This document shows, piece by piece, positions 21,214 through 56,378 of a DNA stretch of 64,000 nt. The notes beneath the pieces were generated by a model. It was not told the DNA's origin, did not search any database, and worked only from the letters and a program-made list of their open reading frames with translations. The stretch's first letter is position 1, and every line of letters begins with the position of its first letter. This DNA comes from Candidatus Poribacteria bacterium (GTDB lineage Bacteria; Poribacteria; WGA-4E; WGA-3G), in assembly GCA_003635255.1 (NCBI GenBank), contig PYJC01000170.1:2500-66499 (forward strand), read 5' to 3'. The position numbers and the translations under genes are program-made.

Positions 21214-22338
21214 ATGGCCAAACAGATTGCACTTTTCAACCACAAAGGCGGCGTGGGCAAGACAACAATGACCTTCAATCTCGGCTGGATGTTGGCAAAG
21301 AAAGGAAAGAAAGTCATCATCGTTGATTGTGATCCGCAGTGTAACCTCACCGGCATGGTGCTTGGCTTCAAGGATGCTAAACGTTTTGAATCAATGTACA
21401 AGTCAGTTGGTGTAACGAATATTCGCGAGGGTCTCGCGCCTGCTTTTGAATCGCGTCCCGCCCCCATCAAACCAGTGAACTGCGAATCCATCCGCGGACG
21501 TATGGAAATGCCTTCGCTACTGCACTTGTTACCAGGACATATTGGACTCGCCGAATACGAGGTGCCCCTGGGAGTCGCACAAGCACTGTCGGGTTCATTG
21601 GTAACGCTCCAGAATTTGCCCGGGTCCTTGCATAACCTTTTTTCTAAAACTGCTGACAAATACAACGCTGATTTTATTTTAGTAGATATGAGCCCAAGTT
21701 TGGGACCGATTAACCAAAACTTGCTTATGACGAGCGACTACTTCATTGTTCCGATGTTTCCGGACTACTTCTCAGCAATGGCGACGGAGAGTCTTGCCTC
21801 AATTTTACCGAAATGGTCGGGGTGGGCAAAGCAAGCCAAAAAGTCGCCGCTTCTACAAGAGGCTATTTATCCTTTTCCTGATAAGGATCCCAAATTTCTT
21901 GGAACTATAGTTCAGAATTATAGAGTTAGGGACGGAGAACCTGCTAAAGCCTTCGGAGAGTGGATTGAGCAAATAAAAATAGGCGTTGAGGAAAAACTCA
22001 TACCAGTCTTACGCGAAAACGATATGCTGCTTCCAGACGAATCTTATATAAAGACAAGGGCACTTGAATCGCATCAGCATCGATTTAATTTTATTAACCC
22101 AGATTTTGTAAATGACCAACTCATAAGTCAACCTCTTCTCCAAGTATCAGACTTCAATAGTCTGATTGCTCTCTCACAGAAACATAAAGTCCCAGTTTTT
22201 GATTTGACAGACGATCAGATTGGTCAAGCAGGTGTGATACTTGAAAGCACTAAGAGATCCATGGAACGCTTTCGGGACTTATTTTCTGATGGTGCGGAGC
22301 AGATAATTACACTTACCGAGAATGCTGAGTCTTATTGA
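21214..22338 (+). CDS. ParA/MinD-family P-loop ATPase with a roughly 120-aa C-terminal extension
   Basis: Deviant Walker A KGGVGKTT; the IVDCDPQ motif; 374 aa; it sits in a defense-gene context rather than a partition context. Confidence 0.8.
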   Translation: MAKQIALFNHKGGVGKTTMTFNLGWMLAKKGKKVIIVDCDPQCNLTGMVLGFKDAKRFESMYKSVGVTNIREGLAPAFESRPAPIKPVNCESIRGRMEMPSLLHLLPGHIGLAEYEVPLGVAQALSGSLVTLQNLPGSLHNLFSKTADKYNADFILVDMSPSLGPINQNLLMTSDYFIVPMFPDYFSAMATESLASILPKWSGWAKQAKKSPLLQEAIYPFPDKDPKFLGTIVQNYRVRDGEPAKAFGEWIEQIKIGVEEKLIPVLRENDMLLPDESYIKTRALESHQHRFNFINPDFVNDQLISQPLLQVSDFNSLIALSQKHKVPVFDLTDDQIGQAGVILESTKRSMERFRDLFSDGAEQIITLTENAESY

Positions 22339-22422
22339 ACAACTTCGTGAAAACATGGTAGGTGTCCGAATTTGGGCGGATTGCATTAGGCATTTGACCA
22401 ACAGACCACCCCCGCTGTAGAT

Positions 22423-22929
22423 TTGAGTGATCTTCTACGCGTGCAGATTGTCATGATTGTCAGTGCGCTTGACCATTATATCCACGAAATCACGAGAGTC
22501 GGGATGTTAGAAGTCTATGACAGAAAACGTCCACAGACGAATGCCTCCTTGCGTTTCCAAGTAACTATGGAGGCAACAATGACGGGAATTTCCAAACCGA
22601 GTGAAAACGACTGGTTTGACAGAGAAATTCGAGACAAGCATGGATACCAAGCCTTCCAACATCCGGATAACATAGCCAACGCAGTACGGCTTTTCTCATC
22701 CTGTGAATTGTGGAGAGCCGTTGCTTCGGAACTTAATCTAACCGATCAAGACGTAAAAAATCGACTTCGCGCTATAGTTAACCGTCGAAATCAAATTGTT
22801 CATGAAGCCGATTTAGATCCAAGTTATCCAGGGACCGGAAACCGTTGGCCCATTTCTCCTGCGGATGTGACAAGTGCCTCAGATTTCATTCAGGACGTTT
22901 GCGAAGCAATTCACACCGTCGTCAATTAA
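22423..22929 (+). CDS. HEPN-like protein (Rx4H motif), putative abortive-infection RNase
   Basis: C-terminal LRAIVNRRNQIVHEADLD contains R-x4-H; all-helical composition; start is TTG 22423 or ATG 22453. Confidence 0.5.
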   Translation: MSDLLRVQIVMIVSALDHYIHEITRVGMLEVYDRKRPQTNASLRFQVTMEATMTGISKPSENDWFDREIRDKHGYQAFQHPDNIANAVRLFSSCELWRAVASELNLTDQDVKNRLRAIVNRRNQIVHEADLDPSYPGTGNRWPISPADVTSASDFIQDVCEAIHTVVN

Positions 22930-22981
22930 GATAGACTGCTGTTTGATGCCATAGTATTTGCCGTGCATGGAGGTAATTAGG

Positions 22982-23293
22982 ATGGCAAGACAAAGAATCG
23001 TCAAATATCCGCCTAAGCGAGGGAAACTCTCAAAATCAAAAATTGAACGAGCCGTAAAGGAGGTCCTTGAGGCGAGAGGGGTCCCTATAGAGCCTAAACG
23101 TGATACCTACAAATACCATCTGAAGCGCGGTAATAAAGTTATCCGTAGCGGAATCACGAACAACTTAGACCGCCATGAAAAGGAACACCAGCGGAACTAC
23201 GGTAAAGATGTCCATGTTCAACAGGTTGGAAATCGGACAACGCGAGAAGGTGCGAGAGAATGGGAAAAGAAGCAACGGCGTAGCACGTCTTAG
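22982..23293 (+). CDS. Minimal GIY-YIG domain nuclease (about 103 aa)
   Basis: GGAGG RBS 8 nt upstream; YKYHLKRGNKVIRSGITNNLDRHEKEH matches the GIY...YIG..T.NL..R...H pattern. Confidence 0.55.
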   Translation: MARQRIVKYPPKRGKLSKSKIERAVKEVLEARGVPIEPKRDTYKYHLKRGNKVIRSGITNNLDRHEKEHQRNYGKDVHVQQVGNRTTREGAREWEKKQRRSTS

Positions 23294-23385: not shown

Positions 23386-24537
23386 TCACTCCTCACTTTG
23401 AGACTTCTCTTTTGAACGCTCAGGATCTATTGCATACTCATAAAATCCATAAAGAATAGTGTTACGATAATATCTAAAGAACAAATGGTAAAGATGAACA
23501 AATATAGGACATAAACTCGCACTAACGCAATAGCACACAAATAAGTTGTTCAAATCCAGAGTATCCCCAATAGGAATTCTTGTTGGTATGCCTCCAATAA
23601 TTAGATTGCTGTAACTGGCACTATAGTCAATTTTGAATTCAAGACAAAATCCTGCTATTAAACCAAGCACTACTATAACTATTCCATAAGAAAGTCCTAA
23701 ACGAATTTCTTTCTTCGTCGTATTTTCATTGTTTTTTTTACAGTCTTCTCGATTTTCATTTTTACTTTGTGTCCAAAGTTTTTTTATACGACTCCAAATA
23801 TTTTTTTCAAGCCAAAGAAAAAACTTTCCTACAATAATCAAGCAAGAGCAAAGAAACCCAACAGCAAAAATAGGAACTATGACTACTATCCACATGTTTT
23901 GAAATAATTTCTCAGAAATAACTATTCTCAGAGAAAAGCCAACAGCTGCTAAACAAAAAATGACTGCTAACAACTTGGCAGAATTGTATAGAGACAGGAG
24001 CCGAGAAGCTCTTGGATAGAGATATGGACTGTGCTTCATGAAACTTGTACGACAGAGATGGAAAATTTCCGTATACTTTACATCTGTCTTAACGTCTGCA
24101 GCTTCGCATTGTATCTTTGATACTTTAATGTCAAAGACTTTTCTAATCTGGTATCTCAATTTATGCACAAATTGGTCCGAATACGGATAATAATCTTCAG
24201 GATACGATCTACATTCAAAGTCGAATAACTCCTTTTCAAACACCCCGTGATCTGAATAATATCTTTTGAAAGGATCCCATATAGTTGAAAAAACTCTAAA
24301 CATCCAATTAATAAACCCATGACTCGCGAGACCAACAACATAACAAGCAACCACATAGAAAATTCCTTGGGTTATCGTAGGACGCAGATACTTTGGCAAT
24401 TCGTCATCGGTACTCTTGAGTTGATCTATTAAATCCGTCGGTAATGTCGGATTTATCAGAATAGTTCCGACAATTATTATCATCAAACCGGGTAGACTAT
24501 AACCCAAAAAATCATAAACTCCAAATGAAAATTTCAT
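23386..24537 (-). CDS. Polytopic membrane protein of unknown function, markedly AT-rich
   Basis: GGAGA RBS before the ATG at 24537; at least 8 predicted TM helices; codon usage and GC clearly lower than the flanks; 20 nt downstream of the methyltransferase gene. Confidence 0.6.
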   Translation of the reverse strand: MKFSFGVYDFLGYSLPGLMIIIVGTILINPTLPTDLIDQLKSTDDELPKYLRPTITQGIFYVVACYVVGLASHGFINWMFRVFSTIWDPFKRYYSDHGVFEKELFDFECRSYPEDYYPYSDQFVHKLRYQIRKVFDIKVSKIQCEAADVKTDVKYTEIFHLCRTSFMKHSPYLYPRASRLLSLYNSAKLLAVIFCLAAVGFSLRIVISEKLFQNMWIVVIVPIFAVGFLCSCLIIVGKFFLWLEKNIWSRIKKLWTQSKNENREDCKKNNENTTKKEIRLGLSYGIVIVVLGLIAGFCLEFKIDYSASYSNLIIGGIPTRIPIGDTLDLNNLFVCYCVSASLCPIFVHLYHLFFRYYRNTILYGFYEYAIDPERSKEKSQSEE

Positions 24538-24572
24538 CAAATTTGTCTCCAATAAACGAATTCAACCGTCTC

Positions 24573-27500
24573 CTACACCTCCATGCCCGCATCTTGATAT
24601 GTCTGCTTAATCAATTCAACTTCCGCATCGGTTAAGCCATACAACTGATACACCAATTCGTCTATCTTCTGCTCAATATCACGCACGCCATCGCTTTCCG
24701 GGGCTGCTAATATCTGTTCAACAAGACGCGACAATTCTGCTTTCTGTGCTGCAGTCCGATCCGCTATTGGAACCTTCTCCATGTATTGAGCGAAAAACTG
24801 CAATCTACCACCCTCCCATGGATCATTGAGGTTATAAAATTTGTGTCGCGCATACCAATCAAAGAGTCGACTATTCAATACAGCAAGTAATGAAAGATCA
24901 CGAGTAGGTATGAAGTATACGTTGTTTAACCCAAATGTCCCCGCTGTATCGTAGCAACCATAGAGAGCCTTTGCTGTCTGTGGATAGATAACTTTCGGTT
25001 TTTTAAATTCGGCATAATAGACACACGAACGAAGTTCCCAATAAAACATACCTTGGTCGCCCCGGGCAATCAATTGATCTCGATAACCCTTCAGATGATT
25101 ATAGACCGCTGGATAGGTTTCGGCGAAAATTTGCTCCGCTTCTGAGGTGTTTCTGGCATCCGACCAGGGCCACTCCCTGTTAGCACTGCTTGCAATAACT
25201 ATCAGGTACTCATTTGTCGAATTTGCTTTCCATCTGCGAAGATTTCGCCCTCTCAATACCGGTTTTATAAGTTCACCGCTCCTTGCGTTCTCAGCAATCA
25301 ACTTCTGGCACACAGGCTTATCAATGATAAATGCATCGTTACATCCAGTCTTCACACCCATGTAGAAACCTCCATCTACATATTCCTCCAATGGTGTTCC
25401 GATCTGTTGTAATCTTGCAAGCAGCCTAAGCACCTCTGACGATGTTAATGCCCATCCATCTGGGGACAAGTCGCGAGAGTCCATGGAAAAAGACTTTTCT
25501 CGAAACGCTTCTGAAAGACGAGGAATATCGGCTTTATCACGAAAGGTTGCAGCGAAAAAAGCCTTGTCCGCTGGCGGTGCACTTTCAGCAAGTAGGATAC
25601 AAGTATCCACGTGCGCCTTAAAAACCGGAACGTTCCCAAAATCAAGTAGTCTGTGAAGTTTCACTCTGTTAGTAAAGAAAGATCGGAGTTTCTTGCCGTA
25701 TGCTACCCGTAGGAAATTATTAGAAGAGATGTAACTGAGAACCCCACCTGTCCGAAGCAATTCAGCCCCGCGTTTGTAGAAGTAGACATATAGGTCTGCA
25801 GTACCTGTAAAAACTTCAGGAAATAATTGTTCTAAAACCGGTTTAATTGGAATGATGTTTTCCTGTCGTACATAAGGTGGATTGCCGACAATAATATCAA
25901 ATCCACCCTCTTGGAATACCTCTGAAAACTCAACCTGCCAGACAAACACATCGGCGTTCGCTTGCCATCCCTGAAGGCTTTCCTTGAGTTCAGCGATCAC
26001 CTCCCGGAGTCTCTGTTTCTCTGGGTCAGTATGGGTAACCAAATATTCCGCTTGATGTTCCTGAATCTGTTGAATCAAGTCAGCCTCAAGACCAATCTGT
26101 TCTGGTGCGGGACCAGTCAAACTATCTCCTGCTGCGACTTTGTAGTCCAAATTGGGCAGTGGTTCTGGTGTGTCACCTTCGTAATCGACGGCAAGACTCA
26201 ACCACAAACGGAGCATGGCAATATTAACAGCAAACTCATCCTTGTCCACGCCGTAGAGGTTTTTCTGAATGATGTCAAGTTTACGTTGATAGATTATTGG
26301 AGAATCAATCTGATTGCTTTGAAAAAGTGCTTCTCGCAAGCGGAGCAACTCACCCATCATGCCGAGTAGATAGGCACCACTGCCACAGGCTGGATCACAT
26401 ATTCGCAATGTCTGCAGGACTTGTAACACTCTCTCTGGATTCCGAATTTTGGTTGCATCACCATCATCAATAAATGCTTGAAGGATTTCTGGTGTCTCAT
26501 CGGTTTTATTTTGGAGGCAGATTTTTAGGCTCTCTCGGCACATGAAGGAAACAACTGGGCGCGGTGTGTAGTAGCTGCCGGTGTCGTGTCTACCGGTAAC
26601 GAGTTCCTCAAACACTTTTCCGAGCATCTCTGGATCGACTGCTACCTCAATATCAAGTGGGGTTGATTCGGTCACAGTGAAATTGTATCGTTCAAAGAGT
26701 TCCAAGATCTCGGCAAATTTGTCGTTAGGAATATGGACAGCATTCTGCACATCGTCCTTCTGCATTTCAAAGAGTCCACCGTTGAGAAACGGCACTCCTC
26801 CCCGACGTTCAACGGCTGCAGATGATTCCTCTGGTTGGTCCGCAGCATTACCGAGTCCATGAAAGAATGCCCAATAGAGCCGGTCGTTGAGAAAATTTTC
26901 ATCGGTTCCTGATTCTGTTGCATCGAAGAGGACACGGAGGTAATCGCGATTACCGTTGTAAGTGAGCCATCCTTTTTTCTCAATAAAGCGCAGGAACATC
27001 AGTCGGTTAAAGAGGCGTTGTGTATAGAGTCGGCGCGCTTCTGTCTCATCTTCTGGAATGCCTTTGACTGCTTTTTCAACCTGTGCAAAGACACGTTGGT
27101 AATCAGCAAAGAATTTATCGGTGACCGCCTCTACATCAAATGCTTCTTGCCATGCTTTTAGCCATGCCTTGTCATCTGAAAAGCCATCGCTTGGAAAGGC
27201 GAGTGCGGGTAGGTTATATTCACAGAGCGTACGGATGTGGGTATCGCCCTGTTCCCAAGAGAAGATCGAAAGCACAGCACGTCGCCAGTTTTCGTTGGAC
27301 GCGAAGTGGGCAAAAGCGAAACGTTGAAAGTCGGTTGTGGTACAGATAAAGAGAAGGTGGTCGTGTTTCCAAGTGGGGAGACTTGAATTTCGATCGCGTC
27401 TTTCAACAAGTCCGCGGAGCACACGACGCAGTGCAGTTCGATAGATGTCCTCGCTGTTGAATTGAAGGAAAAAGATACCCCACGGCTGCGTATCCTCAAA

Positions 27501-27728
27501 AATTCCAAGTGTGGGTTGACTGGGAGGGAATGGTGGTAGCTGCCAGTAGTCACCAATCCGATCTTGCGTCAATTCATCAAGATCAAGCTCTTCAGCAGAT
27601 AAAGAATAGGCTACGTCTTCAAATTCAACGTCTTCGGGGATGTGCCAACCGAATTTCTCGCGCAGAAAGTCTAAGAGGGTGTCAAAGTCATGGATGTTGT
27701 GAATATCGTTTGGTGTTATGTGGGGCAT
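24573..27728 (-). CDS. Gamma-class N6-adenine DNA methyltransferase (Eco57I/PglX/type IIG-like) with a roughly 330-aa N-terminal domain and a C-terminal putative target-recognition region
   Basis: Motif I ICDPACGSGAYLLG precedes motif IV IVGNPPYV; 1051 aa. Confidence 0.85.
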   Translation of the reverse strand: MPHITPNDIHNIHDFDTLLDFLREKFGWHIPEDVEFEDVAYSLSAEELDLDELTQDRIGDYWQLPPFPPSQPTLGIFEDTQPWGIFFLQFNSEDIYRTALRRVLRGLVERRDRNSSLPTWKHDHLLFICTTTDFQRFAFAHFASNENWRRAVLSIFSWEQGDTHIRTLCEYNLPALAFPSDGFSDDKAWLKAWQEAFDVEAVTDKFFADYQRVFAQVEKAVKGIPEDETEARRLYTQRLFNRLMFLRFIEKKGWLTYNGNRDYLRVLFDATESGTDENFLNDRLYWAFFHGLGNAADQPEESSAAVERRGGVPFLNGGLFEMQKDDVQNAVHIPNDKFAEILELFERYNFTVTESTPLDIEVAVDPEMLGKVFEELVTGRHDTGSYYTPRPVVSFMCRESLKICLQNKTDETPEILQAFIDDGDATKIRNPERVLQVLQTLRICDPACGSGAYLLGMMGELLRLREALFQSNQIDSPIIYQRKLDIIQKNLYGVDKDEFAVNIAMLRLWLSLAVDYEGDTPEPLPNLDYKVAAGDSLTGPAPEQIGLEADLIQQIQEHQAEYLVTHTDPEKQRLREVIAELKESLQGWQANADVFVWQVEFSEVFQEGGFDIIVGNPPYVRQENIIPIKPVLEQLFPEVFTGTADLYVYFYKRGAELLRTGGVLSYISSNNFLRVAYGKKLRSFFTNRVKLHRLLDFGNVPVFKAHVDTCILLAESAPPADKAFFAATFRDKADIPRLSEAFREKSFSMDSRDLSPDGWALTSSEVLRLLARLQQIGTPLEEYVDGGFYMGVKTGCNDAFIIDKPVCQKLIAENARSGELIKPVLRGRNLRRWKANSTNEYLIVIASSANREWPWSDARNTSEAEQIFAETYPAVYNHLKGYRDQLIARGDQGMFYWELRSCVYYAEFKKPKVIYPQTAKALYGCYDTAGTFGLNNVYFIPTRDLSLLAVLNSRLFDWYARHKFYNLNDPWEGGRLQFFAQYMEKVPIADRTAAQKAELSRLVEQILAAPESDGVRDIEQKIDELVYQLYGLTDAEVELIKQTYQDAGMEV

Positions 27729-27743
27729 TCGGTAGTTTCCAAA

Positions 27744-28148
27744 TCAGGTGGAATGTGATTCAGAGACTGGCTCTGTGCTTGTCTCTAACGGCGCGTTTGA
27801 TGGCGTTAAGTGTTCACTTGCGAGTTCGCTGCTATTCCCCTCTGCTAATAGCGGTTCGATTGAGAGCTGCCATCCAAGTGCCTTGAGAACGGCATTCAGG
27901 GTACCAAGATGCAGTGGGTCTCCGCTGTATAGAAATTCTGAGAGGACTTTCGGGGTGATGCCGGCTTGCTTGGCAATTTTGGAAGTCCCGCCTTGGGCTT
28001 CTACAACATTCCGGATCCCCTTTAGAAAAAAGGGTGTGTCTCCATCAACAAGATATTCTTCCAATGAAACCTGGAGGTAACTCATCGCTTCCTCTCGGTT
28101 AGCGAGTTTTTCAATTAGGAATTCGTGCCATGTTGTTAGTTTTTCCAT
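27744..28148 (-). CDS. higA: HigA-type antitoxin (addiction-module antidote protein with HTH, TIGR02684-like)
   Basis: ...FLKGIRNVVEAQGGTSKIAKQAGITPKVLSEFL HTH; overlaps the higB stop by about 13 nt. Confidence 0.7.
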   Translation of the reverse strand: MEKLTTWHEFLIEKLANREEAMSYLQVSLEEYLVDGDTPFFLKGIRNVVEAQGGTSKIAKQAGITPKVLSEFLYSGDPLHLGTLNAVLKALGWQLSIEPLLAEGNSSELASEHLTPSNAPLETSTEPVSESHST

Positions 28149-28483
28149 CGTTGTGTCTCCTTGTATTGCGACCAATATTCCTTTGCTCGCTGAATGTCCC
28201 TTGCCTGCGACGACTTGTCGCCTGCACAGAGGAGAAGAACAATTGTATTTTCGACTTCAGCAAAATAAATACGATAGCCTGCACCGAAGTGGGAACGTAA
28301 CTCAAATACACCTTCCCCGACAGATTTAGAATCTCCGAAATTGCCATCTTCAAGTCTGTCAAGCCGTTTTTGAATTCTGCTTCGCACGCTTCGATCTTGA
28401 ATTGTGTTATACCACTCGATAAAAGGCATTCTCCCGTTGGGTGTTCGATAAAATTTTAGTTCTCTTGGCTGTGTATAGCGCAT
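28136..28483 (-). CDS. higB: HigB/RelE-like toxin (addiction-module killer protein, TIGR02683-like)
   Basis: About 115 aa; ...MPFIEWYNTIQDRSVRSRIQKRLDRLEDGNFGDSKSVGEGVFELR...YRIYF is typical of this family. Confidence 0.7.
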   Translation of the reverse strand: MRYTQPRELKFYRTPNGRMPFIEWYNTIQDRSVRSRIQKRLDRLEDGNFGDSKSVGEGVFELRSHFGAGYRIYFAEVENTIVLLLCAGDKSSQARDIQRAKEYWSQYKETQRWKN

Positions 28484-28611
28484 TGATAATATCTTGTTCT
28501 TATCCAAGCGATATATTTCTAAAGTATATCACAAGTTCGGCAGAAAATCAAAGGGTGATGTGAGAAAAGTCGGGATTATAAACCCCTCCCACAAGTATTA
28601 GATAGATGGTT

Positions 28612-29181
28612 TCAGGCATCCAACTTGAAATGGACGAGCGAGATATATTCATCAACAATAGGTCGGCTTTTTCTCCCGCTGAAGCATGCAAAGCCGATGC
28701 TTTGGAAGTTGGTGGTTGTGCAGATAAAGAGAAGTTTATCGTGCTGCCAAAAAGGGAGTGAAACACTACGCCCGTGCCTGTCAACAAGCCCTCGCAGAAC
28801 TTGACGCAAGAGTGTCCTGCAGGCATCAAGTTCCACGTTATCATCAAACTGGATAAAGAAGATACCCCACTGTTGTTGGTTCTCCAGTGAATCTAAATCT
28901 AAAAGTTGCAGCTGCTGATAGGTCTGGGTGTTAGCATTGGATTTACGCGTCACCGCAGACAAATCAAATTCAACATCGTAAAGCTGCAGTTGCCGACAAC
29001 TAACAATTCGGGCTTGAGTGTCAGGATTAAGTTCAAGGTCACTTGCAGACCAGTCATAGGTAATTTCTTCAAACTTCAGACCTTCGTCCGGAATGGGCCA
29101 ATTGAGGCTATCCCGCAAAAAGTCAACCAAGGATTCAAAGTTGTGAACCTCCTGAATTTTGGGTGAAAATTCGTTGCGCAT
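28612..29181 (-). CDS. Stand-alone paralog of the methyltransferase N-terminal domain (190 aa)
   Basis: AGGAG RBS; alignable to residues about 10-190 of the 1051-aa methyltransferase (shared blocks include ...VDFLR..., WGIFF(L/I)QF, LLRQVLRGLV.R, HD.LLFICTTT.FQ); located 35 nt after the helicase stop. Confidence 0.65.
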   Translation of the reverse strand: MRNEFSPKIQEVHNFESLVDFLRDSLNWPIPDEGLKFEEITYDWSASDLELNPDTQARIVSCRQLQLYDVEFDLSAVTRKSNANTQTYQQLQLLDLDSLENQQQWGIFFIQFDDNVELDACRTLLRQVLRGLVDRHGRSVSLPFWQHDKLLFICTTTNFQSIGFACFSGRKSRPIVDEYISLVHFKLDA

Positions 29182-29215
29182 TTCGTTGCTATAGTCTCCT
29201 TGTCGGAAATTGATT

Positions 29216-32200
29216 TCAGGAAATCTCCATCCATGCGATGAGTTTAGGTTTAGCCCCCATAGGTGCTTGTATCTGCATGAGATACTTGCGTATGTGGCGT
29301 TCAATTTTTTTGCGCGCATCCACAAGACCACCCGGGCCGTTTTCTGTCCAGCGCGTGGTATTCTCGCCACATCGGATTTCGGGCCAGATATCCTCAACGT
29401 TCCCAATCACTTCATCTACGTCAGCATCATAGAAGTACCATTTAATTTCACCGTTTGGCATCTCGTAACAACAGAAAACTCCCGCGTCTCCGACGCGATC
29501 AAGCGGAATCGGTTCACCATCGCGATTGAGAAATGGTGGTGGCTCGTCGTCTACATCTTTGCCGGAAAAAAGTCGCATTGGGAGGTCAGGAAGCCGCCGC
29601 CACAACTCAGGGCTGGATTCAGAAATACGTTGACGTTCAAGGTTCATCAGTTCCTCAATGCTTTCTCTACCCTCATAATGCTCATTGAAAAGGCGAAGGG
29701 TTTCATCGTCATCATCGGGTGAAACGAACTTCCCTTCAATACCGAGGGTTCGACTAATACGGAGGATTTTACCATCAACGCGTTTTCGGAGTTTGAGGAT
29801 GTCGTCAAGCTCCGCCGGAGGAAGGAAATTCCAGACGTGAACAGTCGGATTTGTGCGATTAAGTTGCACCTCAATTTCTGCGTCAAGTCGTCGGTCTAAT
29901 CTACCAATACGTTGCATGAGACGGACAGGGTTCCAATGCAGGTCGTAATTGACGATGATGGACGCGTCTTGCAAGTTAAGCCCTTCGGCAAGGACATCCG
30001 TTGTGATGAGTGTCTGAACCGGCACAACACTTTCAAGAGACTTTCCGTTATAACATGGTGAAAAGCGTTCAATAATCTCCTCACGGTTTACTTTACGTCG
30101 GCTATCAATTTGTTCTATATCCTTGAAACCTGTCTGCTGCAGCTGGGTGTAGAGATAACGAGCGGTGTCGCAGAATTCCGTAAAAATAAGCAACTTCTCA
30201 TTTGGATGCTTTTTCAATAGGTTTAGCAGCTGCTGGAGTTTGTCATCTTGCTCTGTAGCAGGTTCACTTGCCAACTGGTCAGCATAGAAAAGCCGATAGA
30301 TTCGACTAAGAAGTGCTGTTAAGAAATTCATATCGTCGACAACATCGTCAAACAATCTGTCCACATCATGGTCTTCTGGCACAAAAACGTCTTCGGGTTC
30401 AATGGAAGCGAGGTCGTCCTCTTCTTCAGACGGATTGGATACTATAGCGCGTTGTAGGTTTTCTGAGGCATGTTGTGATGAAACTCCATCCTCTTGCAGT
30501 CGTTCTAAGATGTGCTCCTGCACAACGCGCCACCATCTCCGATTTGTGCCTTCCCACATTTCAAAACGTTCAGGGGCGTGTTTTTTAAGCCAGTCCGCCA
30601 TTTTGAGGAGCAGATTTTCAATAGTTGCTTCAAATGCTCGCCATGAACTTTCTAAGCGTTTGAGCACAAGCGTCCGGATGAGACCTATAACTTGCTTTTC
30701 ACGCTGTTCAATCCGTCTCTCTGGCTTTTTGTGATACTTGACAGTGTTGTAGATTGCCAGATTAAGAAACGGGTTATGTCGGTCGAAGGCAGCTTGCAGT
30801 TCGTCGTAGAGTGTCCGATAGACTCGACGAAGTGAGTAGTCTACGGTTGGTTCAATAACGCGCTCTGGAAAGAGGATATCTGTCCCTGATTTCTGCTCTG
30901 CATCTTTGATGTATTTACGGCTCCTCTGAATCAACACCTGTTTCAGAAGTGGGTCTTGGCGCAAAAAGTCATCTTCTTCAACCTGACCGGCAATCTCGGT
31001 GGTTTCATCCTCAAGCTGTCTTTCCATGTCGCGAAAGTATTTACGGAAATCATGCATACCGATGCTGGAGAAATGCCTTCTATTGCTCTGCGCGAAATAG
31101 TTAATCAGATGATAGATATCGTCCAAGCTGTTATTGATTGGTGTGGCGGTGAGGAGATAGAGTGTTTTGTTCTGTGCGAGTTCCATCAGAAGTCTACCGC
31201 GATTGGAACTCGGGTTCCGAAAATGGTGTGCTTCGTCTATAATAATAACGTCTTTGTGTTCTCGAAAGTATTCAAGATCATCATCGCTGATTCCGCCCCT
31301 GCGGCCAAGGTCAGTATGCAGCTTGATATCGTAGTGTTCGCGGAGCAGTCGGCCGTATTTTGATCGGAGTTGACGGTTCACTTGGCTGTTCCAAACGCTC
31401 TCTGCTATCGATTTAGGCGTAATGAGTAGGACGCGTTTGTTTTCCCTAAGATAGCGTTCAAGCAGCATCAAGCCAATATAGGTTTTACCGCTACCGACAC
31501 CATCGCAGATCAGCGCGCCATTCCATGTATCTGCTATCTGGAGCGCGGCGTGGTAACCATCTTTTTGGTACTGTGAAAGCGTTCCGTAAATTATCGACTC
31601 TTTTTCTTCCCACTCGTCAGCGGGTTTTTCGCGGCCTCTAAAGTAGGTGTGGAGTGATTTTGCGTAAACAGTAAATGGTGGGTACTCCTTAAGGTGCCGT
31701 TGAATCGTGCGAAGCAGTTCCTCCTTTACTTCAGAGGCTTCCTCCCAACGGGCATCGTACCAATCACCAAGTTTTTCAATATGTGTTGCATCCGTGATGA
31801 AGGAATTTAACTCAACGTTTTGGGTGAGGCCTGGGCGGGTGAAGTTGGAACTGCCGACAGTGGCGAAGTCAACCGGACTTGAATTTTGGGCGTGCATCAA
31901 GTTAAGTTTCGCATGAAACTTGGCTTTATCATAAACGCGCACAGCAATTTTCCCACGGCGAATTGCGTCTCGGACAGCGGCAAGCCCCCGGAGGGTGTCG
32001 TCCTGTTCTTTTTCGGATTCAATATTGGTATCAGTGGTTTCTTGTAAGGCTCTGATGAGATGATCTTTTGTGCGCCGTGTGGTCTCGTCACCCATCAGGA
32101 GACGGATGCCATCCAAGTGCTGCCATGTCTCTCCGAGTGATAGAAATGCCCCAATTTCAAACGTGCCGGTTGCTATATCTAAACTGACACTTTTCATGAG

Positions 32201-32266
32201 AAGGCTTTCAAGGACTTTTTGGAGGGTGTTGCCTTCCACATTGTCAATGAGTGTCGGAATCTGCAT
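29216..32266 (-). CDS. Phospholipase-D-family nuclease fused to an SNF2/DEAH superfamily-2 helicase
   Basis: N-terminal HKD motif HAKLNLMH...VGSSNFT; helicase motif I DGVGSGKT, motif II IIIDEAHHFRN, motif VI QRIGRLDRR; 1016 aa. Confidence 0.85.
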   Translation of the reverse strand: MQIPTLIDNVEGNTLQKVLESLLMKSVSLDIATGTFEIGAFLSLGETWQHLDGIRLLMGDETTRRTKDHLIRALQETTDTNIESEKEQDDTLRGLAAVRDAIRRGKIAVRVYDKAKFHAKLNLMHAQNSSPVDFATVGSSNFTRPGLTQNVELNSFITDATHIEKLGDWYDARWEEASEVKEELLRTIQRHLKEYPPFTVYAKSLHTYFRGREKPADEWEEKESIIYGTLSQYQKDGYHAALQIADTWNGALICDGVGSGKTYIGLMLLERYLRENKRVLLITPKSIAESVWNSQVNRQLRSKYGRLLREHYDIKLHTDLGRRGGISDDDLEYFREHKDVIIIDEAHHFRNPSSNRGRLLMELAQNKTLYLLTATPINNSLDDIYHLINYFAQSNRRHFSSIGMHDFRKYFRDMERQLEDETTEIAGQVEEDDFLRQDPLLKQVLIQRSRKYIKDAEQKSGTDILFPERVIEPTVDYSLRRVYRTLYDELQAAFDRHNPFLNLAIYNTVKYHKKPERRIEQREKQVIGLIRTLVLKRLESSWRAFEATIENLLLKMADWLKKHAPERFEMWEGTNRRWWRVVQEHILERLQEDGVSSQHASENLQRAIVSNPSEEEDDLASIEPEDVFVPEDHDVDRLFDDVVDDMNFLTALLSRIYRLFYADQLASEPATEQDDKLQQLLNLLKKHPNEKLLIFTEFCDTARYLYTQLQQTGFKDIEQIDSRRKVNREEIIERFSPCYNGKSLESVVPVQTLITTDVLAEGLNLQDASIIVNYDLHWNPVRLMQRIGRLDRRLDAEIEVQLNRTNPTVHVWNFLPPAELDDILKLRKRVDGKILRISRTLGIEGKFVSPDDDDETLRLFNEHYEGRESIEELMNLERQRISESSPELWRRLPDLPMRLFSGKDVDDEPPPFLNRDGEPIPLDRVGDAGVFCCYEMPNGEIKWYFYDADVDEVIGNVEDIWPEIRCGENTTRWTENGPGGLVDARKKIERHIRKYLMQIQAPMGAKPKLIAWMEIS

Positions 32267-32374
32267 ACTTATCTAAATTTTCTTTCTATAGAGTTTATTT
32301 AAGCATACCATAGTCAAAAGAAATTTTCAATTTTTCCTATAAAAAAGCAGTTTTTAATCTTTTTCGTAATAAAA

Positions 32375-32407
32375 ATGTAAAAATTATGTAAAAATTATGT
32401 AAAAATT
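32375..32407. repeat. 3 x 11-bp perfect direct repeat (atgtaaaaatt) abutting a TTGACA box in the divergent intergenic region
   Basis: Lies between the start of the helicase operon (minus strand) and the STAS gene (plus strand). Confidence 0.8.
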
Positions 32408-49365: not shown

Positions 49366-50592
49366 CTACGTCGCAGAAGATGTAAACGACTTACTTGCAC
49401 CAGGGTCCACGGTGCAAGGACGAACCGTCAAAGCACGCGCGACATTCTTAATGAATATCCCACGTGCGCCGTTCAAATCCCTATCCATACGATGACCTTC
49501 CGATGACTTGATAACCTTTGAACCCCCAAGGTTTGTGATAAGTTCGCCAGTCCAAGACACTGTTTTGGAAGTATACGCTTCACACACATCTATCACTTCA
49601 ACACCATATTCTTTCGCTTTCTGTTTCAAGAAAACTTTGAAACGATAATGTGAAAGGGTCAGCATCTGTCTAACAGATTTCTTTCGCAACTTCCGGGCAC
49701 CTCGCTTTGTCATCCGCTTCGTCTGAAAAGTTGGAAGCAGGATGATGTCAAAGTTTGTAACAAGAAAGTGTGCGACCTTCTTGTGAAGTTCATCGATAAG
49801 ATTACGGATTTTTACCTTTATTCTATTCGCGGCTTTACGCAAAACACGCCGTAGCGGGCGTTTCTCTTGCGTCGCACGCGATAAGAGATTATCGCAGTGT
49901 TGACAAAGCCTTTGAATGCGGTTGATACACTGCATACCTAACCAACCGAAGCAATCTTCACAGAAAAACGTCATAAAATCACGAACACCGGGGTCAAGTG
50001 CTACTATTCTAACGCTTGGTTCTCGCGTCTTTTTCTTCTCAACATACGGAACACAGAGAAAATAGCGTCCGTTTTCAAATACGAGTTGAGAATCCTTGAC
50101 CTCTGCATCTGTATCACGTTCTGAAACCTTACCTTTTCCTTGAGGTTTCGCTGGTAAAGGTTCTGACAGTTTCATCTCGCCTAAGAATCGGGTATAGAAC
50201 CCATTTTCTTTCAGAGAGTCCGCACGCAGATAAAGCGTCTGTTTGCGTTTTCTTGACCGAAACGAAACCTTTTGAAACTCACCCGTTTCTTTACATTTGA
50301 CTTTAGCACTTTTGACCGCCTGACACGCATCCATCACCGCTCCCACTTTTATCTGGCGTGGCGTTTCCGCGTGCCAGCCAGGGAGTTCGTCAAACACAAG
50401 GGGCACAAGCTTCTTGAAACTTCTTGGTGTGTCTTTTCGATCCAATAAACTCACTGAAGCGTTATACACATACCTTGAAGTCCCAAACCATTTACGAAGA
50501 ATCGCCTTCTGTTCCACTGTCGGAAAGATTTCTATCTTCTTTGATTTGGTCACGGTATCGCCGGAGTCCGGACATTCTACAGGAAAAGACAT
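49366..50592 (-). CDS. tnpB: TnpB-like (OrfB) RuvC-fold protein of the IS607 element
   Basis: IEIFPTVEQKAILRKWFGTSRYVYN N-terminus; RuvC-I ALDPGVRDF; RuvC-III MDRDLNGARGIF; the usual C-terminal CxxC...CxxC and the RuvC-II Glu are not evident (noted in findings). Confidence 0.7.
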   Translation of the reverse strand: MSFPVECPDSGDTVTKSKKIEIFPTVEQKAILRKWFGTSRYVYNASVSLLDRKDTPRSFKKLVPLVFDELPGWHAETPRQIKVGAVMDACQAVKSAKVKCKETGEFQKVSFRSRKRKQTLYLRADSLKENGFYTRFLGEMKLSEPLPAKPQGKGKVSERDTDAEVKDSQLVFENGRYFLCVPYVEKKKTREPSVRIVALDPGVRDFMTFFCEDCFGWLGMQCINRIQRLCQHCDNLLSRATQEKRPLRRVLRKAANRIKVKIRNLIDELHKKVAHFLVTNFDIILLPTFQTKRMTKRGARKLRKKSVRQMLTLSHYRFKVFLKQKAKEYGVEVIDVCEAYTSKTVSWTGELITNLGGSKVIKSSEGHRMDRDLNGARGIFIKNVARALTVRPCTVDPGASKSFTSSAT

Positions 50593-51100
50593 GCAGAATT
50601 GCGAGGAGATCGGCAGTAAGTTCTTCCTCTGGGGAACCGAAAACAGTTTCGTCGAGAACCACGACTTCTCCACCGTTTTGTTCGACCAAGAACTGTATGA
50701 CTTCGCCGCCGAATCGGGCGAGTCGATCCCGATGGGCAACAACAAGGCGGAGTTTATCACCTCGCAAGATGCGTTCCAGTAAGGTTCTAAGCCCTTTTCG
50801 TTTGAAGTTGATACCGCTACCGAAGTCTTTGATGATTTCTGCTTCCGGGTAGTGTTTTTGCAAGTGTGCCACTTGGGACGCAAGATCGTCTGATTGTCCT
50901 TTTCCACTAACCCTGCAATATCCAATGGTAGTAATATCTGTTCGGGTTTGTGCATCTATAAAACTTTGGACATCATATCTACGATGTCCGCCTCCTGTTC
51001 TTATGCAGGTGATTGCTCCGGCACGTTCCATCCGACGCAGATGGTCTACTGTTATTCCGAGCGTCTGCGCTGCTTCTCGTGGGGATTTATAGTTTTTCAT
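50492..51100 (-). CDS. tnpA: IS607-family TnpA serine recombinase with an N-terminal MerR-like HTH
   Basis: HTH PREAAQTLGITVDHLRRMERAG; catalytic Ser region GYCRVSGKGQSDDL; 202 aa. Confidence 0.8.
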   Translation of the reverse strand: MKNYKSPREAAQTLGITVDHLRRMERAGAITCIRTGGGHRRYDVQSFIDAQTRTDITTIGYCRVSGKGQSDDLASQVAHLQKHYPEAEIIKDFGSGINFKRKGLRTLLERILRGDKLRLVVAHRDRLARFGGEVIQFLVEQNGGEVVVLDETVFGSPEEELTADLLAILHVFSCRMSGLRRYRDQIKEDRNLSDSGTEGDSS

Positions 51101-51233
51101 ACCCTAATTATACCACATAAAAACAGATTTATCAAGTTTTATCTATATTTATCAAGTTTTAGAAGTGTTTAGGAACTGCTCCTCAATACTACAGTCGGCT
51201 TCGATCATAGGCGCGTTCTCTTAATTTTGCTGA

Positions 51234-51581
51234 TCAACTCTCATTTGATAACCCAGAAACCGCCTCGTCCTCGTTTTCAAAATGCTCAAAAATACTGACG
51301 AGCCGGCTCCGGACAATCAGATTTTTGATGTTTTTTCCAACATGGATGACACCGATACGACCGTTCTTACGCGTCGCAGCGACATGCGCACCCATCAGGG
51401 TCCCAAGACCAGAACTGTCCATCATCGTGACACGCTCGAAATTGATGAGGATACGCGGCGCATCAGAAGCATCAATCTGAGACGTGATAACGTCTCGTAA
51501 CTCTGATACGGAAGACCCCATTATTTTCCCATTCGGTTCCAAAATCGCAACGCCATCTTTTTGGCGAATCGTAGTTGCCAT
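51234..51581 (-). CDS. Anti-sigma-factor antagonist (STAS), paralog 4 (closest to paralog 1)
   Basis: AAGGAGA RBS; MATTIRQKDGVAILEPNGKIMGSSVSELR...DSSGLGTLMG. Confidence 0.8.
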   Translation of the reverse strand: MATTIRQKDGVAILEPNGKIMGSSVSELRDVITSQIDASDAPRILINFERVTMMDSSGLGTLMGAHVAATRKNGRIGVIHVGKNIKNLIVRSRLVSIFEHFENEDEAVSGLSNES

Positions 51582-52014
51582 GAATTTTCTCCTTACTTTA
51601 TTGTTAGAAAATTGAGTATACCAATCCACTCTCCTAATTTTATACTATTTTCAAACTATTTGTCAACCTGCAATTTTTAAGTGAGTGCAATATTTCGGTA
51701 ACTGGTTGTCAGAACCGGGATTTTCAGCCGGATGTCAAGCAGAAAGAATTGAAACGTGTATGTAGTTAAAACATTGCGGTAGGACAGTAGAAAGTGGTTT
51801 AATATTCGTTAAGTATCCTCATGAAAAACGGCACTTTATCGATAAAAATGGGCTTCGAGGTATGATTCCCGTTTATGTCTTATCAATCTGGGTTGGCATT
51901 TGCTTTACCGGATGTAGTATAATCGTACTGAGAGTGAAACTTGTCGGATTAGTTAATTTCTCATAGATTTTCGTTCAACTCACCTTGATACTAATTAGAA
52001 CAGGAAGGTAGGCA

Positions 52015-54291: not shown

Positions 54292-54321
54292 AGAACACGC
54301 GAAGTTCTCACATCCGAAATA

Positions 54322-55713: not shown

Positions 55714-56375
55714 TATTGTGTTTTACCATCCCGTTTTTCTATTTTTTCTTTATCTTTTTCAGGAAGATTATCGTAGTGTTCTTGAATTTGGTTAGGTTGT
55801 GTAATCAAGACAATAGTAATCATATTGATTAGGGTAAAAAGTGCTTGAACATCGGTAGTATCGTCAAATATGATCTCACCAGGGTGGACAGCATGATTGC
55901 CTGTCACTCGAACAATATCAAGTGCTTGCTGAATTTGCTGACTAATACCTTCTTTTACAAGATTCTTTATATTGGTATTGAGATCCCCGGTCCTACCGCA
56001 ATGTTCAAGAAGCATCTCTATAGCTAATCTCAACAAAGCACAAGCGGCACGCGGAGATTGCTCCGCTATAGTATCGGCTTCGTCATAAACTTGTTTTATA
56101 TCCTCCGGTAAATCACTATTGGCTGGCGGAGCTGTGCGCGGGGCAGGATAGATAATATTTTCAGCCAGCCAAAATGTTTTCTCCTTACAGTGTAAACAAA
56201 TAGAGATTTCTACTTCTCCTTGCTCAAGAGAAATTGGACCATCTGGTGTATACGTCCTTTCTGTATCACTTTTATTATATTCGGATATGTGATTCCAACT
56301 TTGATGGGCATAAACATCGCAATACGGACAATTAAATGTACCACTTCTATGTTTAGGTGGGTAATATTTGGACAT
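55713..56375 (-). CDS. DUF4145-like protein embedded between hsdM and hsdS
   Basis: 220 aa; N-terminal C-x2-C...C-x2-C; a typical genomic position for DUF4145. Confidence 0.5.
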   Translation of the reverse strand: MSKYYPPKHRSGTFNCPYCDVYAHQSWNHISEYNKSDTERTYTPDGPISLEQGEVEISICLHCKEKTFWLAENIIYPAPRTAPPANSDLPEDIKQVYDEADTIAEQSPRAACALLRLAIEMLLEHCGRTGDLNTNIKNLVKEGISQQIQQALDIVRVTGNHAVHPGEIIFDDTTDVQALFTLINMITIVLITQPNQIQEHYDNLPEKDKEKIEKRDGKTQ

Positions 56376-56378
56376 GTT

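Follow-up and report, generated by a model that had tools for sequence, protein, structure and literature searches.

A conserved gene pair of Poribacteria encoding a PLD-Snf2 helicase and an N-domain methyltransferase looks like a split relative of ATP-driven Type ISP and MANTIS systems

The window, i.e. the whole stretch of 64,000 nucleotides that was analysed, comes from a sponge-symbiont Poribacteria genome and carries a block of six minus-strand genes (Table 1). All six genes that the original prediction had placed in this block were found there, full length and with their catalytic motifs preserved. The block is located within a low-GC islet, beside genes for a ParA-like ATPase and a RiboL-PSP-type HEPN protein. 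Intergenic gaps are small throughout, and its flanks carry promoter-like and terminator-like sites, with a terminator-like hairpin at 23360-23333 at the membrane-gene end. A second RM-like cluster is located elsewhere in the window.

Table 1. Features of the block (window positions; residues refer to the encoded protein)
Feature	Position	Strand	Evidence
Putative R subunit: PLD(HKD) nuclease - Snf2-type ATPase - family-specific C-terminal domain, 1016 aa	29216..32266	-	Pfam and PADLOC matches
PLD/HKD nuclease domain, residues 63-174 (H118, K120, GSSN138-141)	31745..32080	-	PLDc_2 8.2e-10, RE_NgoFVII 1.8e-4 (weak), alignment
Snf2-family SF2 ATPase/translocase core, residues ~230-795	29882..31579	-	SNF2-rel_dom, ResIII, Helicase_C
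Helicase C-terminal domain, residues ~850-1016; candidate docking surface	29219..29719	-	Single-sequence probe
Standalone paralogue of the methyltransferase N-domain, 189 aa	28612..29181	-	43% identity, SD + ATG
HigB-like RelE/ParE-family toxin, HI1419/Gp49 type; variable insert	28136..28483	-	TIGR02683 1.1e-35, Gp49 5.7e-6
HI1420-type antitoxin; variable insert	27744..28148	-	PF21716 1.3e-7, 31.9 bits vs cutoff 27
Putative M/S subunit: N-domain - helical spacer - gamma N6-adenine methyltransferase - TaqI_C-type TRD, 1051 aa	24573..27728	-	Eco57I 7.5e-42, TaqI_C 1.5e-9
Family-defining N-terminal domain, residues 1-185	27174..27728	-	No Pfam/NCBIfam/PADLOC model
Helical spacer, residues ~190-430; like MmeI spacer, HsdM N-terminus, PglX	26439..27161	-	
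Target-recognition domain (TRD), residues ~720-1051	24576..25568	-	TaqI_C at 822-967
Membrane protein, 388 aa, six TM-like segments; accessory	23386..24552	-	No Pfam/PADLOC/NCBIfam match

The 1016-aa protein (100% match to Candidatus Poribacteria protein C6499_20765; 74-96% identity across many Poribacteria genomes) is, as predicted, a fusion of a PLD nuclease with an Snf2 helicase: Pfam places PLDc_2 at residues 63-174, SNF2-rel_dom at 233-428 and Helicase_C at 676-792. Its motifs are intact (H118-x-K120...GSSN141, Walker A GSGKT, DEAH and motif VI). ATPase motifs I, II, III and VI are invariant in the family alignment, and PLD catalytic residues are kept in six of the seven aligned helicases, the exception being P0119 (Lys120 replaced by Asn). 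Sequence matches of the ATPase core in the PDB are RapA, Sulfolobus Rad54 and other Snf2 enzymes. Since each chain carries a single HKD copy, a dimer would be needed to form the active site, a requirement established for Nuc, BfiI, SauUSI and MtsD (bioRxiv 10.64898/2026.09.23.753747). Furthermore, a probe made of a single C-terminal domain sequence matches every complete family member inspected; this domain, conserved in every helicase with an N-domain partner, is undetectable in three PLD-Snf2 outgroup helicases that are paired with methyltransferases devoid of the N-domain.

The assignment of the 1051-aa protein to gamma-class N6-adenine methyltransferases also holds: in addition to its Eco57I match, it carries DPACGSG at 445 and NPPY at 616, and the class is gamma because motif I is followed by motif IV and then by the TRD. 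Its ~185-aa N-domain corresponds to no family model in Pfam, NCBIfam or PADLOC. The positions conserved in the N-domain hold hydrophobic residues, Arg, Gln, Thr and Asn, and an alignment of 35 sequences contains no conserved acidic or Lys residue and no acidic/Lys triad. The TRD is the most divergent part among Poribacteria (mean pairwise identity 63%, minimum 47%, versus 76-80% elsewhere), and its divergence is weakly correlated with that of the helicase (rho 0.33). That the TRD evolves fastest is expected if specificity diversifies.

The other genes of the block were also correctly recognised. The small protein described as a 190-aa N-domain copy is 43% identical to methyltransferase residues 9-147 (E 5e-34). 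The listed ORF spans 28612-29406, but the real start is the ATG at 29181, preceded by an AAGGAG Shine-Dalgarno sequence, which refines the length to 189 aa. Of ~47 Poribacteria-type loci, 17 have this gene directly 3' of the one for the helicase; although a variable accessory, it is under purifying selection (pairwise dN/dS 0.06-0.46, mostly 0.12-0.25). The predicted HigB-HigA pair has the organisation of a type II toxin-antitoxin system, with a RelE/ParE-fold toxin gene whose stop is overlapped by 13 nt by the start of the antidote gene. Both proteins exceed family cutoffs (TIGR02683, 121.9 bits vs 62.85, for the toxin), the antitoxin scoring below the cutoff of the TIGR02684 antidote model (22.9 vs 53.7). 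HigB has its own promoter-like site at 28551-28523, and HigBA separates the two core genes in only some loci. The predicted membrane protein, a 388-aa ORF with six TM-like segments, has no match in Pfam, PADLOC or NCBIfam, and a homologue directly 3' of the methyltransferase gene is present only in L008 and L025.

The gene content of the single operon that had been proposed is therefore right, but a fixed six-gene operon is not what the related loci display: they have a conserved two-gene core with variable inserts. HigBA, the standalone N-domain gene and the membrane protein gene are variable, lineage-specific accessories and do not belong to the core. Moreover, the stretch that separates the N-domain gene from HigB in the window contains both a terminator-like site and a distinct promoter-like site, so the core genes may belong to different transcripts. 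This terminator-like site 3' of the N-domain gene, as well as the truncated, split or duplicated methyltransferase genes of many Poribacteria loci (L004, L005, L006, L011, L022, L033, L046), would fit a module that is silenced or in decay, broken up when HigBA and the N-domain gene were inserted and kept only by toxin-antitoxin addiction. Such decay is very unlikely in this genome, considering its six full-length ORFs with intact motifs, the strong conservation of the helicase across Poribacteria, the purifying selection on the N-domain gene and the recurrence of the N-domain and HigBA layout in L008 (and of the N-domain gene with HigA alone in L003).

About 100 related loci were examined in Poribacteria, in other bacteria (including Desulfonema, Blastocatellia, Clostridia and Verrucomicrobia) and in Methanosarcinales; viral contigs yielded no relatives. 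A methyltransferase with the same N-domain is almost always encoded 3' of the helicase gene. Where the helicase gene is complete and sufficient downstream DNA is available (~40 loci from genomes and ~30 from metagenomes), all loci but L055, L057 and L082 (the helicase gene of L082 being itself truncated) have a same-strand downstream N-domain ORF, which is mostly a large methyltransferase ORF. Reciprocally, for each of the three N-domain proteins checked in other phyla, a PLD-Snf2 gene lies upstream. Apart from the pair, no gene family is found repeatedly: none occurs in more than 3 of the 60 non-Poribacteria loci, so neither DrmA/B nor BrxC/PglZ nor DUF499/DUF3780 accompanies the pair. The two-component system that had been proposed is thus borne out as regards co-occurrence, the large genes being a co-conserved, self-contained pair across phyla. 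The N-terminal module remains constant while the methylase/TRD type alternates between Eco57I+TaqI_C and Type_ISP_C. In L100, one continuous ORF runs from the PLD domain straight into the N-domain and methylase; the same junction apparently exists in L099 as two overlapping ORFs. In P0294, an in-frame fusion links the C-terminal domain of the helicase with the N-domain, and in L132, the N-domain and spacer are a separate, translationally coupled polypeptide.

These data bear on the possibility that the two genes are independent neighbours, i.e. a modification-dependent (Type IV) PLD-helicase restriction enzyme like SauUSI next to a Type IIG-like methyltransferase that is an orphan or sufficient in itself. 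The architecture of PLD plus SF2 helicase is common to SauUSI and MtsD, and SauUSI alone acts on modified DNA (bioRxiv 10.64898/2026.09.23.753747; PMC12707154). Clustering of defence genes also occurs without functional linkage. Furthermore, L029 encodes only the helicase and the small N-domain protein, the methyltransferase being truly absent from the 10 kb downstream, and the helicase can therefore outlive the methyltransferase (L024 has the same two genes but only ~660 nt of downstream sequence and is uninformative on this point). Nevertheless, independence is unlikely: whether one starts from the helicase or from the N-domain protein, the other gene is almost invariably adjacent on the same strand across phyla, gene fusions link the two proteins, and no modified-base reader such as SRA/DUF3427 is recognisable in the helicase by Pfam scan. 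In addition, a Type IV enzyme next to a host-modifying methylase would require non-overlapping specificities.

Most partners outside Poribacteria carry a Type_ISP_C specificity domain (E 1e-46 to 1e-98), and in the one partner tested (L035), homology to DrdV, LlaBIII and LlaGI begins at the methylase domain and takes in the TRD; the window's own methyltransferase has an Eco57I methyltransferase and a TaqI_C TRD, not Type_ISP_C. A split relative of Type ISP that is powered by PLD/Snf2 is therefore the most apt description of the pair. Its placement outside types I, III and ISP stands, but these partners show that it is not unrelated to Type ISP, IIG and IIL. As in Type ISP enzymes (LlaGI, LlaBIII), a nuclease, an SF2 dsDNA translocase, a gamma N6-adenine methyltransferase and a C-terminal TRD are combined. 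By analogy, an asymmetric site, one-strand methylation and translocation-coupled cleavage might be expected. However, Type ISP enzymes are single polypeptides, whereas the window and nearly all relatives have two genes, single-ORF junctions between parts of the two proteins being rare (L100, P0294 and possibly L099). Type ISP nucleases are N-terminal and of the Mrr-type PD-(D/E)XK family, whereas the nuclease here is PLD/HKD; the motor is of the Snf2 family with a distinct C-terminal domain, and a unique N-domain and helical spacer take the place of the covalent coupler. Type III was rejected, the methyltransferase being gamma and not a beta-class Mod and the nuclease an N-terminal PLD and not the C-terminal PD-(D/E)XK of Res. 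Type I was also rejected: the locus contains no HsdS or HsdR, and the TRD lies within the methyltransferase chain.

Type IIG/IIL enzymes (MmeI, DrdV, BpuSI, Eco57I) cut with their own N-terminal PD-(D/E)XK and do not need ATP; here, such an active domain was not found in the methyltransferase chain, and a separate, predicted ATP-driven PLD nuclease is encoded alongside. The pair could still be a strict Type IIG/IIL enzyme if its N-domain were a divergent PD-(D/E)XK nuclease, with the PLD-Snf2 protein serving as a remodeller or as an auxiliary or backup effector. We consider this improbable given that PADLOC REase_MTase_IIG models cover only residues ~430-1043 and leave the N-terminus uncovered, that the N-domain lacks conserved catalytic residues and that those of the PLD are kept in nearly all aligned helicases. 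Moreover, L100 and L099 retain the PLD and lose the helicase, and not the reverse.

The pair belongs to none of DISARM, BREX, MANTIS, Type I, Type III and Type ISP. It shares with class 1 DISARM (DrmA, DrmB, DrmC, DrmD, DrmMI) the association of an Snf2-type helicase, a PLD nuclease and an N6-adenine methyltransferase. It differs by the absence of core DrmA/DrmB and by the union of PLD and Snf2 in one protein. As had been proposed, it is not DISARM: DrmA and DrmB (DUF1998) are absent from the flanks and related loci, and scores with DrmD and DrmMI models are far below cutoff or inferior to those of other models. For instance, the helicase reaches 128 bits with NCBIfam DrmD NF038317 (cutoff 610), and its partial DrmD match in PADLOC (5e-30) compares with 1.3e-71 for C3a139 'HKD+Snf2'. 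The exclusion of BREX is likewise sustained by PglX scores (64-76 bits vs cutoffs of 400-500) and by the lack of PglZ/BrxC in the flanks. DISARM had been taken as the nearest likeness, but the closest characterised system is MANTIS / Gao_RL / BR type 2, which combines a PLD-helicase effector and an N6-methyltransferase (PMC12839542; bioRxiv 10.64898/2026.09.23.753747). As in the MANTIS (MtsA-D) effector, an N-terminal HKD/PLD is fused to an SF2 helicase-like ATPase; in MANTIS too, an N6-adenine methyltransferase supplies target recognition (PMC12839542; bioRxiv 10.64898/2026.09.23.753747). By contrast, the DUF499 AAA+ ATPase (MtsA) and the DUF3780 protein (MtsB) are absent from the window flanks and related loci, the small N-domain protein having no DUF3780 match even at E <= 1. 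The helicase scores 110 bits with the NCBIfam PLD anti-phage model (cutoff 1100) and 2e-14 with PADLOC PLD_Helicase, and the methyltransferase is of Eco57I/ISP lineage with its own N-domain. The CglI and NgoAVII ATP-dependent enzymes and SauUSI also have a PLD nuclease driven by an SF2 helicase-like motor, and the helicase PLD weakly matches the RE_NgoFVII PLD domain in Pfam. Hence, the pair has the appearance not of a DISARM fragment but of a split and uncharacterised relative of two ATP-driven systems, Type ISP and MANTIS. Such pairing was noted in passing earlier (PMC9881135; cluster C3a139 'HKD+Snf2' in PMC6546367); in the literature searched, a system made of a PLD-Snf2 protein and an N-domain methyltransferase is neither named nor tested.

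The MANTIS methyltransferase is inactive without MtsA and MtsB (bioRxiv 10.64898/2026.09.23.753747), and there are secondary PADLOC matches to BrxHI/II, HmaA, DrmD and PglX. The pair might thus be only the visible part of a BREX- or MANTIS-like system with further unlinked components, such as a DUF499/BrxC-type ATPase encoded elsewhere. This has little probability: the Pfam scan of the window detected no DrmA, DrmB, BrxC, PglZ, DUF499 or DUF3780 within ~10 kb either side, the 60 diverse loci share no recurrent third family, and NCBIfam scores for those families are all far below cutoff. Furthermore, characterised members of the Eco57I/Type ISP lineage, to which the methyltransferase belongs, are autonomous.

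From the gene pairing and motifs observed, we infer, with a probability of about 60%, that the two proteins are the subunits of an ATP-dependent restriction-modification system: site recognition would fall to the methylase-TRD subunit, which would recruit a PLD nuclease able to translocate along DNA. Precedents exist in Type ISP (PMC3874165) and in MtsC/MtsD of MANTIS (bioRxiv 10.64898/2026.09.23.753747). The 1051-aa Type IIG/IIL/ISP-like subunit would recognise a short, probably asymmetric site via its own TRD and methylate host copies. The N-domain and helical spacer, which occupy the position of the Type IIG/IIL nuclease or of the Type ISP junction to the motor, may dock the second subunit, probably onto its family-specific C-terminal domain; co-occurrence, the three outgroup loci and a few fusions point to this role. 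In MANTIS, MtsA and MtsB are needed for both methylation and restriction, and MtsD binding to MtsA-C is undetectable by analytical SEC (bioRxiv 10.64898/2026.09.23.753747); it is therefore possible for a PLD-helicase effector to act without direct recruitment by its methyltransferase, which counts against direct docking. The 1016-aa subunit would be the restriction arm, its Snf2-type dsDNA translocase using ATP to travel from unmodified sites. Its single-HKD PLD would have to join another copy to complete an active site, so that cleavage would occur once two loaded motors had met or dimerised. As in Type ISP, Type III and MANTIS, inverted site pairs would be the preferred substrates. Besides these two subunits, the standalone N-domain paralogue may modulate docking as a decoy or second adaptor.

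The six consecutive minus-strand ORFs of the original prediction are present in the window as described (see table). The first encodes the PLD(HKD)-Snf2 protein (hereafter the helicase), which matches PLDc_2 (residues 63-174), SNF2-rel_dom (233-428) and Helicase_C (676-792) in Pfam and is 100% identical to a Candidatus Poribacteria protein. The small ORF that follows, the standalone N-domain gene, has its refined start at ATG 29181, 34 nt past the helicase stop and with AAGGAG ahead of it; its product is 43% identical to methyltransferase residues 9-147 (E 5e-34). Of the two toxin-antitoxin (TA) genes, the first specifies a HigB-like toxin of the RelE/ParE family (HI1419/Gp49 type) and the second an antidote of the HI1420 type; their refined starts are at 28483 and 28148, and they overlap by 13 nt. 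According to Pfam, the methyltransferase belongs to the Eco57I family of N6-adenine enzymes, and its specificity domain is TaqI_C; the protein has the gamma arrangement, with motif I (DPACGSG) at 445, NPPY at 616 and the target-recognition domain (TRD) after both. The last product carries six transmembrane-like segments and matches no family in Pfam, PADLOC or NCBIfam. Consensus scans, whose hits are pattern matches only, located promoter-like and terminator-like sites, and the HigBA pair's own promoter-like site might also drive the methyltransferase gene. In an AT-rich stretch upstream of the helicase gene, an 11-nt unit is repeated three times in tandem (GTAAAAATTAT), and these repeats overlap promoter-like matches.

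Coordinates of the features in the window and in related loci from genomes and metagenomes (L-numbers)
Feature	Location	Positions	Remark
Six-gene block	window	23386-32266	minus strand
Tandem 11-nt units in AT-rich stretch	window	32366-32407	upstream of helicase gene
Promoter-like site	window	32330-32302	upstream of helicase gene; consensus scan
Helicase gene	window	29216-32266	minus strand; 1016 aa
Standalone N-domain gene	window	28612-29181	minus strand; 189 aa
Terminator-like hairpin	window	28586-28572	after N-domain gene; consensus scan
Promoter-like site	window	28551-28523	before HigB; consensus scan
HigBA in slot	window	27744-28483	
HigBA in slot	L001, L004, L008		
Methyltransferase gene	window	24573-27728	minus strand; 1051 aa
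Terminator-like hairpin	window	23360-23333	after membrane gene; consensus scan
ParA-like ATPase, HEPN and 111-aa ORFs	window	21214-23293	plus strand
TnpB/Cas12f1-like protein	window	49366-50955	second cluster
NACHT NTPase	window	52015-54291	second cluster
Two further genes after 706-aa protein	window	54322-56375	minus strand; second cluster
706-aa HSDR_N_2 + N6_Mtase/Eco57I protein	window	56379-58499	second cluster
AF2212-like + PIN in slot	L130	6230-6955	
PF00004 AAA+ ATPase	L030	13298-16974	
PF00004 AAA+ ATPase	L130	10488-13956	
PF00004 AAA+ ATPase	L079	3730-4959	
Phosphoribosyltransferase + DprA pair	L029	13737-15655	
Tandem PLD-Snf2 paralogues	L061	1038-4484; 4840-8094	
PLD to N-domain + methylase	L100	1-2511	one continuous ORF
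PLD to N-domain + methylase (apparent)	L099	7965-12010	two overlapping ORFs
Outgroup pair	L146	1955-10285	Microcystis plasmid p1
Outgroup pair	L049	3952-11312	Nostoc plasmid
Outgroup pair	L145	4580-10169	Haloferax pHV4

The locus is a real, widespread two-gene restriction-modification (RM)-like module; the original observation is confirmed and its interpretation partly supported. Scanning one genome per species with the helicase alignment gave 48 loci, about 40 of them in Poribacteria and the others in Desulfonema magnum, Planctomycetota, Methanosarcinales (two loci), Clostridia, Acetatifactor and Verrucomicrobia; about 50 more true relatives (36-61% identity) came from metagenomes. IMG/VR contained no true relatives, and a phage origin was therefore rejected. 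Downstream partners were searched by tblastn and with home-made profiles, with consistent results: complete helicase genes with downstream sequence are followed by a same-strand ORF that starts with the N-domain (about 185 aa) and is large in most loci (about 1000-1600 aa). This does not hold for L055 and L057, which have only 2.3 kb and 1 kb of downstream sequence, or for L082, whose helicase gene is truncated. L024 has the small N-domain gene only, but its sequence stops about 660 nt past the helicase. L029 has lost the full methyltransferase and kept the small N-domain gene alone; a phosphoribosyltransferase and DprA pair lies there after the helicase and N-domain genes. Reciprocally, a PLD-Snf2 gene lies upstream in all three N-domain proteins from other phyla that were traced to contigs, both genes being degraded in one of these. 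When all neighbours in 60 non-Poribacteria loci were clustered, every further family was confined to three loci at most. Since no third family recurs and the window flanks carry housekeeping genes plus one small module, the core consists of two genes.

The genes located between or after the core pair are variable and include HigBA or HigA alone, a VapBC-like pair, the standalone N-domain gene, AAA+ ATPases with or without S8 peptidase, C5 methyltransferases, a DUF1016/YhcG nuclease and a Schlafen AlbA_2 protein. The slot between the two core genes harbors unrelated TA pairs in different phyla. Furthermore, three loci, from Desulfonema, from Blastocatellia and from a metagenome, share a classical AAA+ ATPase (PF00004) within the module or next to it, two of them with an S8 subtilase. 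One locus (L061) carries tandem PLD-Snf2 paralogues upstream of a single partner of 1603 aa with an extra C-terminal GmrSD_N domain.

Most partners outside Poribacteria are organized as N-domain, helical spacer, N6_Mtase and Type_ISP_C (Pfam E 1e-46 to 1e-98), and some have extra C-terminal fusions to GmrSD_N or AlbA_2. The Methanosarcinales partner aligns with DrdV (6e-41), LlaBIII (1e-35) and LlaGI (3e-29); the aligned part begins with the methylase domain and reaches the TRD, and the first 320 residues or so of the partner lie outside. These alignments show homology of the partner with Type ISP/IIL methylase-TRD modules. Partners from Poribacteria, Blastocatellia and a few metagenome loci have an Eco57I + TaqI_C catalytic/TRD part instead. 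Since two catalytic/TRD types are found behind a common N-terminal module, this module has been kept and the methylase/TRD cassette exchanged.

Among the 26 complete Poribacteria pairs, the TRD is the most divergent part of the methyltransferase (mean 63% identity), and its divergence correlates weakly with that of the helicase (rho 0.33, against 0.63-0.68 for the N-domain, spacer and catalytic domain). This fits with specificity switching in an RM system. As these three parts track the helicase about equally, the mirror-tree analysis gives no sign of a co-evolution specific to the N-domain; it shows co-inheritance with TRD swapping. In many Poribacteria loci (L005, L006, L015, L033, L004, L011, L022 and L046), the methyltransferase gene is split, truncated or duplicated and additional C-terminal TRD fragments lie on the same strand, which suggests that the specificity end often recombines or decays. 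Programmed inversions have been described next to such gene pairs (PMC9881135). The window contains neither significant inverted repeats nor additional TRD copies, and a phase-variable shufflon was therefore rejected.

The N-domain is present in 504 cluster representatives (exhaustive phmmer, clusters at 50% identity), 252 of them at E <= 1e-10, and is N-terminal in the top matches listed, except for a fusion protein, P0294. It has no match in NCBIfam, PADLOC or Pfam (for the latter even at E <= 1), and its assignment to DUF3780 or another known family was rejected on this basis. Modelled alone (pLDDT 87), it has no convincing solved counterpart and nothing significant by Foldseek. Its weak matches, among them RecB nuclease, DrdV, YraN, BpuSI, ACE1, HsdR and Hjc, hint at a degenerate restriction-endonuclease-like fold at the position of the Type IIG/IIL nuclease. 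The nearly invariant positions are hydrophobic residues, Arg101, Arg105, Gln63, Arg166, Thr167 and Asn172. Since they include no acidic/lysine triad, catalysis by the N-domain is unlikely.

In 17 Poribacteria-type loci, the standalone N-domain gene comes immediately after that of the helicase. One could view it as a dead fragment, but its frames are intact, its start codon and Shine-Dalgarno sequence are conserved and its pairwise dN/dS is 0.06-0.46 (mostly 0.12-0.25, with dS up to about 2). On these sequence criteria, it is a real gene and no debris.

Some proteins link the two partners directly, such fusions being rare. The PLD region is fused to the N-domain and methylase in L100, and apparently also in L099, the helicase being absent from both, and P0294 joins the helicase end, including its C-terminal domain (residues 850-1016 in the window helicase), to the N-domain. 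At one locus (L132), the N-domain and spacer are separate from the methylase and TRD, with a 4-nt overlap. Moreover, distant PLD-Snf2 helicases (26-27% identity) from a Microcystis plasmid, a Nostoc plasmid and Haloferax pHV4 adjoin Eco57I-type methyltransferases (about 1100 aa in Microcystis and Haloferax, 747 aa in Nostoc) in the reverse order, methylase then helicase. Other defense genes lie between them (in Microcystis, a nucleotidyltransferase and SLATT). A resemblance by eye between the N-domain and the methyltransferase N-termini of Microcystis and Haloferax was discarded for want of statistical support. Neither the N-domain nor a counterpart of helicase residues 850-1016 is detectable in the three outgroup loci; hence these are the two family-specific modules. 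With few outgroups, we infer that they are the obvious candidates for mutual contact.

Membership in known systems was assessed by NCBIfam, PADLOC and Pfam searches that covered the operon as well as its flanks, and by the neighbour clustering in 60 loci. The locus lacks what defines DISARM, BREX, MANTIS/BR type 2, Type I and Type III. The module is not a categorically new system. In contrast to Type ISP enzymes, the locus does not encode a single Mrr-bearing polypeptide and, unlike Type IIG/IIL enzymes, its methyltransferase has no active nuclease of its own. Its closest functional analogue would be a two-chain version of a Type ISP enzyme in which the nuclease and the motor have been replaced. 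The effector type is common to the locus and MANTIS, which was experimentally shown to need two additional proteins (bioRxiv 10.64898/2026.09.23.753747). The best PADLOC model for the window helicase is C3a139 'HKD+Snf2', a cluster found near type III CRISPR loci (PMC6546367). In the literature searched, the helicase-methyltransferase pairing is mentioned only in passing (PMC9881135 and, as C3a139, PMC6546367), and the two-gene module is apparently uncharacterised.

All functional statements on the module are predictions. The motifs of the PLD, Snf2 and methyltransferase parts are all preserved. Enzymes of the Type ISP/IIL methylase-TRD lineage have asymmetric recognition sites, of which they methylate one strand; single-HKD nucleases such as BfiI, SauUSI and MtsD work as dimers, and Snf2 ATPases move along dsDNA. 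At unmodified sites, the methylase-TRD subunit would use its N-terminal module to recruit the motor nuclease. ATP-driven translocation would come next, and DNA would be cut once two PLD domains have paired. Tentatively, with about three chances in ten, the N-domain may be an undescribed docking module that plugs interchangeable methyltransferase-TRD cassettes (Eco57I/TaqI_C or Type ISP-type) into one PLD-Snf2 motor via the helicase C-terminal domain, the standalone Poribacteria copy being a dedicated regulatory subunit. The simplest idea for this copy is a decoy, or a second adaptor for the motor nuclease that could gate its dimerisation. If the docking reading is true, the locus is a minimal two-to-three-protein answer to the recruitment problem, for which MANTIS uses two extra proteins.

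If the proposed reading as a two-subunit RM system is right, the module is a compact and widespread RM architecture of bacteria and archaea that joins three usually separate fields: Type IIG/IIL single-chain enzymes, Type ISP motors and the PLD-helicase effectors of MANTIS/BREX-related systems. Two proteins appear to suffice, and this could provide a tractable model of the handover of an unmodified site from methyltransferase-TRD to translocating PLD nuclease, which to our knowledge has not yet been reconstituted for MANTIS. The same reading would give an annotation rule for pairs now called 'helicase-related protein' and 'N-6 DNA methylase' or 'hypothetical protein'. It would also extend the view of defense in sponge symbionts, in which the module is frequent and has a diversifying specificity domain.

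The block is flanked in the window by housekeeping genes and by a small module directly beside the operon, which encodes an AAA_31 ParA-like ATPase (374 aa), a RiboL-PSP-type HEPN protein (168 aa, PF18735 2.4e-12) and a 111-aa ORF and may be a separate small abortive-infection or defense-type module. A second defense-like cluster occupies positions 49366-58499.
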